DNA of 64,000 nt, from contig JACPTS010000001.1 of NCBI GenBank assembly GCA_016192685.1, positions 458,628 through 522,627 of the forward strand, in the 5' to 3' direction. Positions 23,531-62,361 of this stretch are shown one piece after another. The notes under the pieces were generated by a model. That model searched no databases, was not told the DNA's origin, and worked only from the letters and a program-made list of their open reading frames with translations. The translations under genes and the position numbers were made by a program. Every line of letters begins with the position of its first letter. The first letter of the stretch is position 1. Origin of the DNA: Candidatus Harrisonbacteria bacterium. Lineage in GTDB: Bacteria; Patescibacteriota; Minisyncoccia; UBA6257; 02-FULL-45-10c.

Positions 23531-23887
23531 TTGTTTAGGATGAAACTGAAAGCGGGGATTGAGGGGGAGTTTGAGAAGTGGCGATTAAAAATGTTGAATG
23601 CCCAAAGAATGGAAGTGCTAAGGGGATTTTCAGAAATCAGCGAGTTGCTGGAAGCTAATCGTCCCACAAAGGAAGCGGCAGAAATTTTAGCTAGAAGCAA
23701 ATTAAAAATAAGAATTAAATTGCAAGATCTGGGATATCTGGCGTTGGCGGTTTCCCTATTTCATGAAAAAGGCAGAAATTTTCGGTTTCATTGGAATCAA
23801 TTTTGGCAAGGGGAAGATTGGGCTTTGGATATGGAAGTTTCTGGGCGGGAAAGAGTTTTTAGTCCTTATGCCTCAGAAAAAGAATAA
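23531..23887 (+). CDS. Hypothetical protein
   Basis: ORF followed by the terminator aaccccgcttagcggggttt. Confidence 0.35.
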   Translation: MFRMKLKAGIEGEFEKWRLKMLNAQRMEVLRGFSEISELLEANRPTKEAAEILARSKLKIRIKLQDLGYLALAVSLFHEKGRNFRFHWNQFWQGEDWALDMEVSGRERVFSPYASEKE

Positions 23888-23905
23888 CCCCGCTTAGCGG
23901 GGTTT
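23886..23905 (+). terminator. Intrinsic terminator
   Basis: ccccgc ttag gcgggg followed by ttt. Confidence 0.5.
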
Positions 23906-23937
23906 ATGTTTGGTTAGAAAAATGATAAAATTTAAGG

Positions 23938-24612
23938 GTGCCAATATTTAGAACCAAAAACGAAAATTTTTTTAAGAAATGGTCACCAGAAATGGCTTAT
24001 GTTTTAGGATTTTTCGTCGCGGACGGGAATTTAACGCTTGGAAAACGAGGAAATCATTATATTGAATTTACTTCTTGTGATAAAGAAATTTTGGAGAGAA
24101 TAAGGAAAAGTCTTGATAGTAATCATAAAATTAGCGCGCGTAAACTCCAGAAAGAAAATCACAAAATTTGTTACAGGATTCAAGTTGGTAGCAAAATTAT
24201 ATTTGAAGATTTAGTTAATTTTGGCTTCAAACCGAATAAAAGCAAAAGATTGGCTTATCCCAAAGTGCCCTCCGCGTATTTTCATCATTTTGTACGCGGC
24301 TATTTTGATGGCGATGGCCACGTGACAGAAGGATTTTATAAAAGCCGGGATAGAAAAAAGCCAAAACATTTACTTTTTGCCGGTTTTACTTCAGGAACCA
24401 AAAGTTTCTTAGAAAAATTGAAGTATAATTTAACAAAAGTTCGTATAGTTAATGGCGGCACACTATATTATTCAAAGGGCTACAGATTAAATTTTTCAAT
24501 TAGCGATAGTTTAAATCTTTATAAATTTCTTTACAAAAGCCTAGATAATCAATTATACTTAGCAAGGAAGAAAAAAGTATTTGAAAAGTATTTAAATGCG
24601 GTAGTAGCTTAG
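23938..24612 (+). CDS. LAGLIDADG homing endonuclease (double-motif), free-standing
   Basis: Two LAGLIDADG motifs, LGFFVADGNL and VRGYFDGDGHV; last 15 nt overlap the 5' exon of tRNA-Asp. Confidence 0.75.
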   Translation: MPIFRTKNENFFKKWSPEMAYVLGFFVADGNLTLGKRGNHYIEFTSCDKEILERIRKSLDSNHKISARKLQKENHKICYRIQVGSKIIFEDLVNFGFKPNKSKRLAYPKVPSAYFHHFVRGYFDGDGHVTEGFYKSRDRKKPKHLLFAGFTSGTKSFLEKLKYNLTKVRIVNGGTLYYSKGYRLNFSISDSLNLYKFLYKSLDNQLYLARKKKVFEKYLNAVVA

Positions 24613-24886
24613 TGGCCTAAAGCGCCTCCCTGTAGGTAACTGCAGCTCCTAATGGAAACTTTGGGATGAACATTCTGGGATAACGGTGAAGCCTTAAATA
24701 AAATTTATTTATGGTAATACCGTGGGAACCGAGCACATAAATCTTTATGTGCTCGGGCGCCGTAGAGACTAGATACCAGAGCGTCTAACCCTAATTTTAG
24801 GTAAGATGAAGATATAGTCCACGCCATTACGAAAGTAGTGGATTCGTGCACGGAGGAGACCGTGGGTTCAAATCCCATCTACCGCG
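24598..24886 (+). tRNA. tRNA-Asp(GUC) interrupted by a ~215-nt group I intron (exons 24598-24633 and 24849-24886; intron 24634-24848)
   Basis: 5' exon gcggtag ta gctt agtggccta aagc g cctcc ctgt; 3' exon cac ggagg agacc gtggg ttcaaat cccat ctaccgc g. Acceptor and anticodon stems complement perfectly, anticodon loop is CUGUCAC, discriminator G73. Intron has a GTAGAGACTAGA core and an ...AGATATAGTCC P7 strand similar to the Azoarcus tRNA intron; candidate P1 is exon ctgt with intron gcag (24642-45); omega-G at 24848. Confidence 0.75.
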
Positions 24887-24888
24887 CA

Positions 24889-24927
24889 ATTATAAAAGCA
24901 GAGCTTGTGCTCTGCTTTTATAATTTT
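24889..24927 (+). terminator. Intrinsic terminator after tRNA-Asp
   Basis: aattataaaagcagagc ttgt gctctgcttttataatt followed by ttt. Confidence 0.6.
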
Positions 24928-25044
24928 GATTGGAAGGGATTTGAAGGGTATTCCAAAAACATAAACTGCTTTATGTTTTTGGAAACCCCGGCTTTGAAGG
25001 AGGAGCGAGCCTGTGCTTTGCACGTGCGAGCGACGGGTGAAAAG

Positions 25045-25063
25045 AAATCCCATCTACCGCGCA
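25045..25063 (+). repeat. 19-nt direct repeat of the tRNA-Asp 3' end (aaatcccatctaccgcgca) inside a degenerate T-arm-like fragment
   Basis: Exact copy of 24870-24888, 175 nt downstream; preceded by gggtgaaaagaaatccc, which resembles a decayed T-arm. Confidence 0.5.
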
Positions 25064-26110: not shown

Positions 26111-26431
26111 AGCGGGGTAGAGCAGTAGTTAGCTCGCCTGGCTCAATAACAATATATTTGGGCGTCTTAATAAGTAATTATTAAGAAGATTACTCGTCAA
26201 ATTCGGGGAAGTCTTAAGTTGCATTTTGCGGCCTGATAATCCCGAGCTAAAATTTAATACTTTAATTGTATTAAATAAATGTGTAGAGACTAGATGGCGA
26301 GGTCGCTTTTGGCGATAAGGTATAGTCCAGACCACAAACCGTAGCACATAAAATTTTATGTGCTCGGGCGATGAAAATCGTAGTAGGTAAGCATAACCAG
26401 GAGGCCGTTGGTGCAAATCCAACCCCCGCGA
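26111..26431 (+). tRNA. tRNA(CAU) (Met or Ile2) interrupted by a ~248-nt group I intron (exons 26111-26143 and 26392-26431)
   Basis: 5' exon agcgggg ta gagc agtagtta gctc g cctgg ct; 3' exon cataa ccagg aggcc gttgg tgcaaat ccaac ccccgcg a. Intron carries GTGTAGAGACTAGATGG and TATAGTCC core elements plus a GAGCACATAA-family hairpin in the P9 region; omega-G at 26391. Position 1:72 is an A:G mismatch. The splice site (33/34) is inferred and P1 is not cleanly identified. Confidence 0.6.
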
Positions 26432-26444
26432 CATGTTTTAAACA

Positions 26445-26476
26445 AAAAATACCTTGATATAAGGTATTTTTTGTTA
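26445..26476 (+). terminator. Intrinsic terminator after the intron-containing tRNA(CAU)
   Basis: aaaaaatacctt gatat aaggtatttttt. Confidence 0.6.
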
Positions 26477-26481
26477 GCATT

Positions 26482-26609
26482 GCGGGGGTTGGATAGGGAA
26501 GGGGTCGGGAAACGGGAGTTTCCCGTGTCGGAAGGCACCGAGCACATAAAATATTTTATGTGCTCGGGTCGGAAAACCGAGGGTTTCCGAGCATTCTAAT
26601 CCCCCGCGA
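26482..26609 (+). ncRNA. tRNA-like structured RNA of unknown function (~128 nt) containing a GAGCACATAA-family hairpin
   Basis: Ends pair like an acceptor stem (gcggggg ... cccccgc g); internal hairpins cgggagtttcccg, ccgagcacataaaatattttatgtgctcgg and ggaaaaccgagggtttcc; flanked by two intrinsic terminators; no canonical D or T loops. Confidence 0.3.
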
Positions 26610-26614
26610 CTAAT

Positions 26615-57492: not shown

Positions 57493-57523
57493 TCGAGCAC
57501 ATAAACTTGTTATGTGCTCGATT
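57491..57523 (+). terminator. Intrinsic terminator built on the GAGCACATAA-family palindrome
   Basis: aatcgagcacataa acttg ttatgtgctcgatt followed by atttttt. Confidence 0.65.
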
Positions 57524-61044: not shown

Positions 61045-61098
61045 ATAAGTTATACTTTAACTAACAATTTAATTGCCTAAACCTTAATTTATTAGGGC

Positions 61099-62361
61099 AT
61101 GGCTAAAAGACCCGATGAAGATACTGAACCCCGCGTTCAGCAACTCTTCATCGGGCCATATTGGGAAACTGATATGGGGTCGCAAGACCTAGCTGGTGCG
61201 GGGTTTAGTATTTATATGGCATTAACTAAATGTAATGAATGTGGCGGAGAAGTATCAGATAAAGCATCTATTTGCCCGCATTGTGGTAATCCAATTCATA
61301 CTGAACCTAACTCAATAATTAACCCCCCACCTTTACCAATTTCAGAAATAAATATAGAAGAAAAACCGGGGATTCTTTTTAAAATTACTTATACAATATT
61401 ATGGATATTTGCTGTATTAATAATAGTTTTTGTTCTCATACTTGTAATTGGGCCATTTATACTCCCAAATAATCTTTATAAAGACCTTATATTACAAGAA
61501 CTGACGAATTCACCAACAAACCTTTTCCAAAAGCAGTGGTGGCAAGAATTTCAACAGAAGATACCACAAACAAAAGATTCTTCCCCAACGTCATCAACAA
61601 AAATTATTTTTAATCCAAAACTTATTTCTGATAGTAAATTTTCATTCTATACATTGAACGTAGGAAAGAACGAAGACCATAATATATCTTATAGAGACGA
61701 GCAAGGAATAATAAAATTACTTAATACAATAAATTATCCACCCAAATTAACACAAAATTTAATCATAATTTTTATAAATCCAGATGATGTAACTTCAGAT
61801 ATGATACTTGTAAATCCGGATAAAACTTGGTTAAATTTTTCTGATAATAGAACTGCAGAGGGTGGGCTTTATGCAACAAATAAAAATTGGCATTGGATTG
61901 AAATTAATAAACCAGTACCATCATTTACTGGAGCAATTTTAATTCATGAGCTCGGTCATCGTGTAGCTACAGAATTAACTCAACAAGAATGGGATAATTA
62001 CTATAAACTCCGAGGTATATCAGCTAATACATCAAGAAATATAAATAATTGGATTTTATCCCCACAAGAAGATTTTGCCGAAGTTTTTAAATATATTTTT
62101 CGCCAAGGAGACCCTAAAATATCCGTAGAATGGCAGATCCGAACTCAATATGGAAATGTTATACCAACAAATGAATTGATTGAACCAGTAATAACGGGAT
62201 GTGATTCTTTATTCGGAAGAGCCGATCAAAAGAAATTACAAAGTTGTAGAAATGCTAATAGCGGAGCGCTCGATTGGGTTGGTAGGCCTTTATATTTTAG
62301 GGTTACTGATTCAGCAACAGAACAATTTATCAGAAATATTATTAAAAGATTATTGCAATAA
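61099..62361 (+). CDS. Membrane-anchored protein with N-terminal zinc ribbon and C-terminal HExxH zincin-like domain
   Basis: CNECGG...CPHCGN zinc ribbon, one TM helix (ILWIFAVLIIVFVLILVIGPFIL), HELGH motif with downstream Glu. Confidence 0.45.
   Translation: MAKRPDEDTEPRVQQLFIGPYWETDMGSQDLAGAGFSIYMALTKCNECGGEVSDKASICPHCGNPIHTEPNSIINPPPLPISEINIEEKPGILFKITYTILWIFAVLIIVFVLILVIGPFILPNNLYKDLILQELTNSPTNLFQKQWWQEFQQKIPQTKDSSPTSSTKIIFNPKLISDSKFSFYTLNVGKNEDHNISYRDEQGIIKLLNTINYPPKLTQNLIIIFINPDDVTSDMILVNPDKTWLNFSDNRTAEGGLYATNKNWHWIEINKPVPSFTGAILIHELGHRVATELTQQEWDNYYKLRGISANTSRNINNWILSPQEDFAEVFKYIFRQGDPKISVEWQIRTQYGNVIPTNELIEPVITGCDSLFGRADQKKLQSCRNANSGALDWVGRPLYFRVTDSATEQFIRNIIKRLLQ

Follow-up and report, generated by a model that had tools for sequence, protein, structure and literature searches.

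Free-standing homing endonucleases are known chiefly from phages and organelles. The GIY-YIG enzyme SegB of phages T4 and T6 is encoded as a free-standing gene within a tRNA cluster and is reported to cut within tRNA-containing DNA (PMC13096335) and to be inherited along with the flanking tRNA genes through recombination (PMC13096335; PMC3984707). The review PMC3984707 also defines intronless homing and describes collaborative, or trans, homing, as with F-CphI by a cyanophage psbA intron and mobE/I-TevIII at nrdB. The same source covers group I introns in bacterial tRNA genes, including cyanobacterial tRNA-Leu(UAA) and tRNA-fMet with I-Ssp6803I. LAGLIDADG genes inside rRNA introns have been described in bacteria of the candidate phyla radiation (CPR; PMC11270868), and the word "tRNA" is absent from that paper. 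Here we describe a free-standing LAGLIDADG homing endonuclease gene (HEG) that overlaps the 5' end of an intron-split tRNA-Asp gene in a 64,000-nt stretch of a Candidatus Harrisonbacteria genome (GCA_016192685.1, contig JACPTS010000001.1, positions 458,628 to 522,627 of the forward strand), referred to below as the window. The genome consists of 724,852 bp in three contigs, with an estimated completeness of 99.94%. The gene belongs to a large, apparently unreported family of HEGs situated at tRNA 5' ends in Patescibacteria: full-text searches, which left subscription-only papers uncovered, turned up no account of LAGLIDADG genes beside tRNAs in CPR bacteria and none of group I introns in their tRNA-Asp genes. 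The locus is made up of the following features, with positions counted in the window:

23938..24612, + strand: free-standing two-motif LAGLIDADG HEG with a GTG start, 224 amino acids, its last four codons and stop within the tRNA
24598..24633, + strand: tRNA-Asp(GUC) 5' exon, 36 nt, last base U35, ending ...CCCUGU
24634..24848, + strand: group I intron without an open reading frame (ORF), 215 nt, between anticodon positions 35 and 36, ending in G (Rfam RF00028)
24849..24887, + strand: tRNA-Asp(GUC) 3' exon, beginning CACGGAGG

No intron encloses the HEG, which is bounded by a terminator-like hairpin on one side and the tRNA 5' end on the other, and the tRNA-Asp intron begins 21 nt past the HEG stop codon. 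That stop (TAG, 24610-24612) coincides with tRNA-Asp positions 13-15, giving an overlap of 15 nt with the tRNA. The GTG start is correct because the N-terminus, MPI[FY]K.KNENFFKKW, is conserved across the homologs. At the other end the conserved protein core stops at about residue 219-220 (...RKKxVFEKY..) and the final four, tRNA-encoded residues vary; family-wide, the end of the conserved core corresponds to the first base of tRNA-Asp. The protein matched Pfam LAGLIDADG_3 (PF14528) over two stretches at 51.8 bits, against a cut-off of 22.5. Its motifs are VLGFFVADG (catalytic D29) and VRGYFDGDG (catalytic D126), and these aspartates are retained in 115/117 and 116/117 aligned family proteins, respectively. 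An AlphaFold (AF2) model built on 40 homologs shows two repeats of a helix plus four strands (predicted local distance difference test 92.6, predicted template modeling score 0.89), in agreement with the pseudo-dimeric alpha-beta-beta-alpha-beta-beta-alpha fold of the class. Foldseek returned 140 PDB matches to this model at E<=0.001, and the top ones listed were all LAGLIDADG enzymes, namely I-Tsp061I (E 1.7e-11), I-AniI, the bI3 maturase, and the I-OnuI group. I-Tsp061I (2DCH) was also the sole clear sequence match of the protein (E 7.9e-5). By sequence and modeled fold, the product is a monomeric, pseudo-dimeric two-domain LAGLIDADG homing endonuclease whose activity, for this class double-strand cleavage at a specific site of 14-40 bp, is predicted.

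The tRNA-Asp gene is interrupted at ...CCCUGU|AGG and ...UCGUG|CACGG, with the 5' splice site after a U and a G at the end of the intron. The intron scored 59 bits against RF00028 (gathering score 50) in sensitive and whole-genome scans; a window scan with default filters failed to detect it. Its conserved core is common to at least 18 homologous introns, and it is a group I intron that, judged from its sequence, is a candidate for self-splicing. ARAGORN called no tRNA on the unspliced locus because the gene is split, and it called the 75-nt ligated exons as tRNA-Asp(gtc). No second tRNA-Asp was found in the 725-kb genome. The exon junction is confirmed because contigs of other organisms from the same groundwater join ...CCCTGT directly to position 24849, and intron-less tRNA-Asp alleles in relatives have the identical junction. 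The contigs compared, all of them DNA from groundwater metagenomes, revealed no clear allele of this same strain that lacked the HEG or the intron; joints with short flanks or low similarity were left out of account. A search for RNA runs covering the locus listed none. A previous reading of this DNA, made from the sequence only, had reported an intact 224-residue, two-motif frame ending 15 nt into tRNA-Asp, and this observation is confirmed here. That sequence-only reading had named two findings that would count against it, a decayed pseudogene or a wrong 5' exon. The ORF is intact with both catalytic aspartates present, and the exon assignment is borne out by the tRNA call on the joined exons and by the intron-less contigs.

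The position of the HEG next to a tRNA is a property of its family. More than 1,750 homologs of about 224 amino acids were found, the best 120 at 52-100% identity, and the closest relatives come from Candidatus Harrisonbacteria and other Patescibacteria. Of 131 confirmed homolog loci on genome contigs, 80 were kept for analysis, and 75/80 adjoin a tRNA 5' end (68 tRNA-Asp and 7 tRNA-Cys(GCA)). Among the tRNA-Asp loci, 50 have an intron-less tRNA-Asp(GTC) and 18 are split at the same site as in the window, two of which, L061 and L069, have an extra insert. One of the remaining five loci is at a contig end, and four distant ones, from Amesbacteria, a Hodarchaeota metagenome-assembled genome (MAG), and two Bacillaceae, have no tRNA. 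As a control we used relatives on viral contigs (at least 575, at 28-42% identity), of which only 1/80 loci adjoins a tRNA. The adjacency is not due to chance because 75/80 genome loci show it versus 1/80 for the phage-borne relatives. The lone phage-borne relative at a tRNA is on a 427-kb viral contig (L338), where its stop codon lies 1 nt into tRNA-Trp; this contig could be a transfer vehicle or cellular DNA mistaken for viral.

An even sample of 401 genomes from the phylum gave a similar picture. With homologs defined at E<=1e-10, 40 of 45 listed places were fetched and 36/40 adjoin a tRNA 5' end (9 Asp, 5 Cys, 19 Leu, and 3 Phe), while three are not at a tRNA and one is ambiguous. The window's own genome encodes a paralog (37% identity) whose stop codon lies 1 nt before an intron-less tRNA-Leu(GAG). 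In a FastTree phylogeny of 117 proteins, 76 rows form an Asp clade, the Cys proteins are on one branch (support 89), and Leu and Phe proteins make up a clade with support 100. The tRNA-partner label changes 17 times on this tree compared to 56.6 times when labels are shuffled, a value matched in 0/200 shuffles. Protein clades follow the tRNA partner, and the main association of the HEG is with the tRNA gene and not with the intron.

The junctions of the cassette are tight at both ends. The stop codon is inside the tRNA in 38/56 intron-less Asp loci, with overlaps including 10 nt (16 loci), 15 nt (14), and 23 nt (4), and the ORF ends 2-37 nt short of the tRNA in the other 18. In the Cys clade the overlap is 18 nt in 9/12 loci. 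The stop is usually supplied by conserved tRNA positions, either U8-A9-G10 or positions 13-15 as in the window. In seven loci the HEG ATG is located 2-4 nt past the 3' end of tRNA-Met, too close for a promoter or ribosome-binding site to fit between them. In HEG-less genomes of the same class, tRNA-Met directly precedes tRNA-Asp, with spacers of 3, 7, 13, 19, 23, 27, 35, 40, and 47 nt and upward. Since the ORF is flush with both tRNA genes and the empty spacers are short, the cassette is approximately a bare ORF in place of the spacer, and in many loci it has neither a promoter nor a stop codon of its own. In three loci (L061, L069, and L220) the HEG is separated from the genuine tRNA-Asp by an additional insert and a short pseudo version of the tRNA start, GCGGYYGTA, after which the sequence is unrelated; this suggests a further element targeting the 5' part of the tRNA.

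The distribution of the family is patchy. Any HEG homolog is present in 35/401 phylum genomes and absent from 366/401, and the Asp type is present in 10/401. To this we added a set of intron-less tRNA-Asp genes, with 30 loci fetched from the 89 pattern-positive genomes among 121 in the class. An intact HEG is next to none of these 30 tRNA-Asp genes, and one (L163) has a remnant with recognizable N- and C-terminal pieces. Four other loci, including L220, contain decayed HEG copies (L073, L107, L220, and L274). Thus, occupied loci, empty tRNA-Met/tRNA-Asp spacers, and remnants exist as presence/absence polymorphism at one site. Three genomes of the window's order have HEGs from three different subclades, and a Nomurabacteria copy is nearly identical to a Daviesbacteria copy.

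The intron shows a one-sided relation to the HEG. A first intron motif, GGGATAWCGGTGAA, was rejected as a marker for tRNA-Asp as it also matches tRNA-Asn and tRNA-Tyr introns plus five chance sites, and we therefore used a tRNA-Asp-specific pattern that joins the 3' core of the intron to the beginning of the 3' exon. This pattern was found in 2/401 genomes, each of which also has an Asp-type HEG, so that split tRNA-Asp genes occur in 2/10 genomes with such a HEG versus 0/391 others. In metagenome contigs, 80 loci were fetched among the matches listed; 66 were chance hits and 14 were genuine split tRNA-Asp genes, counted only if both intron core and T-arm were present. Among these, 13/14 have a HEG or remnant upstream: ten with a HEG (intact or cut by the contig end), one with only the C-terminal motif in the 186 nt available, and two with decayed remnants. 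The 30 loci fetched from 39 matches in class genomes without an intron-less tRNA-Asp match contained no Asp intron; the group I introns there are in Asn-, Tyr-, and Phe-type tRNAs. Along the HEG tree, the intron switches between present and absent 11 times, and at least six of these switches are forced by well-supported branches. The intron is found with the HEG, and the HEG is mostly found without the intron. Six loci of one lineage have a tRNA-Asp with an unusual T-arm (GGGGTCAGCACCC, lacking TTC), and all six are split and beside a HEG.

No homolog is located inside any tRNA-Asp intron, and these introns, at 205-236 nt, contain no ORF. The HEG is free-standing, as first read, and the suggested comparison with relatives in which it might reside inside the intron turned up no such case. 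Of the association then proposed between HEG and intron, the linkage is well supported by the counts above, and a dependence of the HEG on the intron is not, given the 50/68 intron-less tRNA-Asp loci and the Cys, Leu, and Phe clades. The core motif of the Asp intron is present in 21/401 phylum genomes, and a reversed-pattern control matched one genome. Introns with this motif follow U35 of tRNAs with GUN anticodons (11 Asn, 4 Tyr, and 2 Asp loci), and five further matches in coding DNA are due to chance. Four of the 11 tRNA-Asn(GUU) introns hold an ORF in the P1 loop. One of these, in L146, would encode a 104-amino-acid HNH-like protein, which scored below threshold against Pfam HNH (20 bits, cut-off 21.4) and is a candidate internal endonuclease, unlike the external LAGLIDADG gene at tRNA-Asp.

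Based on these comparisons, we consider it probable that the HEG belongs to a horizontally mobile family of free-standing LAGLIDADG cassettes that reside directly 5' of tRNA genes, with the intron hitch-hiking. The enzyme would cut HEG-less alleles of the tRNA-Met/tRNA-Asp spacer at or near the tRNA 5' boundary, a site that insertion of the HEG would destroy. The HEG-bearing copy would then repair the cut with the conserved tRNA genes as homology arms, and the ORF would be copied in by intronless homing. The ORF-less intron, 36 bp away, would be an element in its own right, carried along with the HEG by co-conversion. Co-conversion would explain why the intron is found almost only beside a HEG and why most HEGs have no intron. 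A hitch-hiking intron, with collaborative homing only in a loose sense, appears most likely from the sequence comparisons. The HEG message probably comes from tRNA-operon transcripts and its expression is probably low; RNase P cleavage at 24598 (tRNA +1) would strip the stop codon from the message, possibly limiting expression further.

Several points weigh against this interpretation. The empty-site spacer to the left of tRNA-Asp is AT-rich, with no visible conservation or left half-site, and the 5' parts of tRNA-Asp genes beside HEGs are diverse. One of the 14 split tRNA-Asp genes among the matches listed (L221) has no recognizable HEG. The intron patterns were derived from HEG-linked introns, which introduces ascertainment bias, tRNA regions are often unassembled, and related genomes do not count as independent observations. 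The Moranbacteria, Wolfebacteria, and Harrisonbacteria subclades of the HEG tree agree with host labels, so much of the inheritance may be vertical, and both the labels and the binning of MAGs are unreliable. Finally, high conservation, at 50-75% identity over more than 100 proteins, and nearly always intact reading frames would also fit a gene that benefits its host.

A wider proposal, which we advance tentatively and with some doubt, is that Patescibacteria as a phylum carry LAGLIDADG cassettes of a "naked ORF" kind, with more than 1,750 proteins, that have specialized on tRNA genes, and that these tRNA genes would fill four roles at once. The tRNA genes would be the homing target, the homology arms between distant lineages, the transcription unit, and the translational punctuation. 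In the last role one tRNA would be followed at once by the start codon and the next would contain the stop codon, with RNase P processing competing with translation.

The host benefit just mentioned could mean that the protein has been domesticated, either as a trans-acting maturase for the tRNA-Asp intron or as a DNA- or RNA-binding factor of the tRNA operon, and is mostly inherited vertically. Intact frames with high conservation over many lineages are consistent with this, as are clades that match host taxa, the restriction of the intron to places where the protein is encoded, and the bifunctional I-AniI and bI3 maturase as the second and third fold matches. However, we find domestication unlikely, since 366/401 phylum genomes and 29/30 class tRNA-Asp loci do without the gene and evidently still make tRNA-Asp, and decayed copies of the HEG exist. 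Maturase-only LAGLIDADG proteins often lose their catalytic aspartates, but here both are kept. Moreover, tRNA-Asn and tRNA-Tyr carry closely related introns even where the genome has no LAGLIDADG homolog, for example in five genomes of the phylum sample.

We judge strict collaborative homing to be quite improbable. In this scenario the HEG would cut intron-less tRNA-Asp at the insertion site in the anticodon loop, the intron would protect the donor, and the two would form an obligate pair. The near-constant linkage of the intron to the HEG (13/14 loci among the matches listed, and 2/10 versus 0/391 genomes) and the mere 36 bp between the HEG and the insertion site speak for it. However, 50/68 tRNA-Asp-linked HEGs are beside an uninterrupted tRNA-Asp, and sister clades are beside intron-less tRNA-Cys, tRNA-Leu, and tRNA-Phe. 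The intron-less alleles are informative here, as the anticodon arms of intron-less tRNA-Asp genes beside a HEG are the same as those of HEG-less genes. Six arms are shared, and one of them, GCCTCC-CTGTCAC-GGAGGA, is present in 5/57 HEG-bearing and 7/30 HEG-less tRNA-Asp genes, so that an enzyme with this target would cut its own locus. A target at the insertion site would therefore persist beside most HEG copies, which argues against strict collaborative homing and favors a target that is destroyed by insertion, i.e., one at the tRNA 5' boundary. A homing target at this boundary is thus favored by the sequences of the shared arms.

The comparative data agree well with the earlier suggestion of a HEG aimed at the tRNA locus, whereas the shared arms argue indirectly against cutting at the intron insertion site. 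The intron-less alleles of relatives, which had been proposed as a means to locate the target, have the same arms with and without a HEG and show no visible left half-site. An attempt to deduce the target from the D-arm type of tRNA-Asp failed, as HEG-bearing and HEG-less genes span the same range of 5' sequences. The window has no tRNA upstream of the HEG, and inspection of that region by eye found no partial copy of the start of tRNA-Asp, which would be expected if the cassette brought a replacement 5' half. Incidental adjacency, in which tRNA 5' flanks are permissive, well-transcribed "safe harbors" for small ORFs with no site-specific targeting, would agree with the empty spacers lacking a conserved left half-site and with the other small inserts collected by the tRNA clusters of the genome, but is very improbable given clades that are each specific for one tRNA identity, junctions exact to a few nucleotides over dozens of distantly related genomes, and phage relatives at a tRNA in only 1/80 loci.

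The candidate recognition site initially put forward was a palindrome within the intron:

24729..24756, no strand assigned: palindrome CCGAGCACATAA...TTATGTGCTCGG in the P6 hairpin of the intron, a copy of a dispersed palindromic repeat

The GAGCACATAA palindrome was rejected as a homing site. The Rfam alignment places it in the P6 hairpin, which is variable, and other tRNA-Asp introns have unrelated hairpins at this position. The repeat, CCGAGCAYATAA..TTATRTGCTCGG, has nine regular-expression matches genome-wide (e.g., 24729-24756, 26538-26570, and 57495-57519 in the window). Its sites include terminator-like intergenic hairpins, the tRNA-Phe intron, a position downstream of a CAU tRNA, and elements resembling miniature inverted-repeat transposable elements (MITEs). 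An extra copy, read from the sequence and not matched by the regular expression, is in the CAU-tRNA intron.

Three elements flanking or within the HEG could bear on its expression and that of the tRNA:

23886..23904, + strand: terminator-like hairpin closing the upstream unit just before the HEG, 8-bp stem with 6 GC pairs, from a scan that as a whole was not above chance
23923..23931, + strand: possible extended -10 element TGATAAAAT, read from the sequence, ending 6 nt before the GTG
24530..24559, + strand: promoter-like hexamers TTTACA-18-TATACT in the HEG 3' end, 10/12 matches, 38 nt before the tRNA

If TGATAAAAT is an extended -10 element, which is possible, the HEG mRNA may be leaderless or nearly so; the two-hexamer promoter scan did not report this element. 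The hexamers at 24530..24559 are a weak candidate for a promoter belonging to tRNA-Asp itself. Promoter and terminator scanning of the window gave 6 sites versus 5.1 expected, which is not above chance.

Two other tRNA genes of this genome, a CAU tRNA and tRNA-Phe, are also split by introns, for a total of three with tRNA-Asp. The CAU tRNA (Met/fMet/Ile2 type; window 26112-26433) has a 248-nt group I intron after U33 (26144-26391, RF00028 62.4 bits), was missed by ARAGORN, and has no adjoining HEG. The tRNA-Phe(GAA) gene is outside the window (C1:217903-218151, - strand), and its group I intron, also after U33 (RF00028 73.3 bits), carries the palindromic repeat. By ARAGORN the whole genome seemingly has neither tRNA-Asp nor tRNA-Phe, and the apparent lack of the latter arises because it too is split by an intron.

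Downstream of tRNA-Asp is a further element, read from the sequence:

24889..25062, + strand: insert made up of a terminator-like hairpin and, after it, an element whose end repeats the tRNA 3' end

The duplicated tRNA 3' end is a 19-nt repeat at 24870-24888 and 25044-25062, and the insert also holds a pseudo 3'-half broken by a hairpin. Similar sequence was found in several contigs from other groundwater sequencing runs. The insert is not part of the HEG cassette, and related inserts that duplicate tRNA 3' ends occur elsewhere. A MITE-like or structured element of about 110-130 nt (GGGAAGGGGTCGGGAAACGGGAGTTTCCC...CCGAGGGTTTCCGAG) is present at window 26434-26610, C1:451540, C1:347353 (- strand), and C1:217810 (- strand), and at one locus in a related genome (L129). 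The element directly adjoins tRNA genes on their 3' side, with the T-arm of the tRNA repeated in inverted form ahead of it, and in some copies the tRNA 3' end is duplicated on its far side; Rfam gave no match at the gathering score. Also present are a LOOT RNA (Rfam RF03000) at window 61074-61190 (84.8 bits) and the transfer-messenger RNA gene at C1:241996-242341.

This family is large and site-specific, with bare-ORF genes bordering the 5' ends of tRNA genes on bacterial chromosomes and separate clades for Asp, Cys, Leu, and Phe. If the proposed mobility is correct, a selfish gene would be spreading through a phylum of divergent small genomes by using tRNA genes, the most highly conserved DNA on offer, as both landing pad and homology arms. 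Under the wider, more doubtful proposal, the arrangement would be a naturally occurring step toward a mobile intron, its parts not yet fused, in cellular bacteria rather than in phages. Because the tRNA-Asp intron is linked almost exclusively to an external HEG, the question of how an intron acquires an endonuclease becomes testable, and many natural states are at hand for comparison: the HEG alone, the HEG with the intron, a decayed HEG with the intron, and related introns that enclose an HNH-like ORF. The family may also be a pool of compact (about 220 amino acids) monomeric meganucleases with predictable, tRNA-gene-centered targets. For annotation, standard finders miss split tRNAs, and thus tRNA-Asp and tRNA-Phe look "missing" in this genome.

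In comparison with described systems, the protein shares its fold and motifs with I-Tsp061I (PDB 2DCH) and other intron-encoded archaeal and bacterial LAGLIDADG enzymes. The genes of the I-Tsp061I group and the LAGLIDADG genes of CPR rRNA introns lie inside rRNA introns, whereas the HEG is outside any intron or intein and flanks a tRNA. The tRNA-Asp intron resembles other bacterial tRNA introns in its small size, its group I type, and its place in the anticodon loop, but differs in its position after U35 of tRNAs with GUN anticodons (Asp, Asn, and Tyr) and, for Asp, in having an external endonuclease. Collaborative homing is the nearest conceptual analogue of the link to the intron. In the known cases, however, the HEG targets the intron insertion site, whereas here most HEGs are next to intron-less genes with unchanged sites, which makes the intron look like a passenger that the HEG can do without. 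In function the closest analogue is SegB, which like the HEG is a free-standing endonuclease gene amid tRNA genes. SegB is a GIY-YIG enzyme of phages whose gene has its own boundaries, whereas the HEG encodes a LAGLIDADG protein on a cellular chromosome, is flush with or overlaps its tRNA, and belongs to a family with one clade per tRNA identity.

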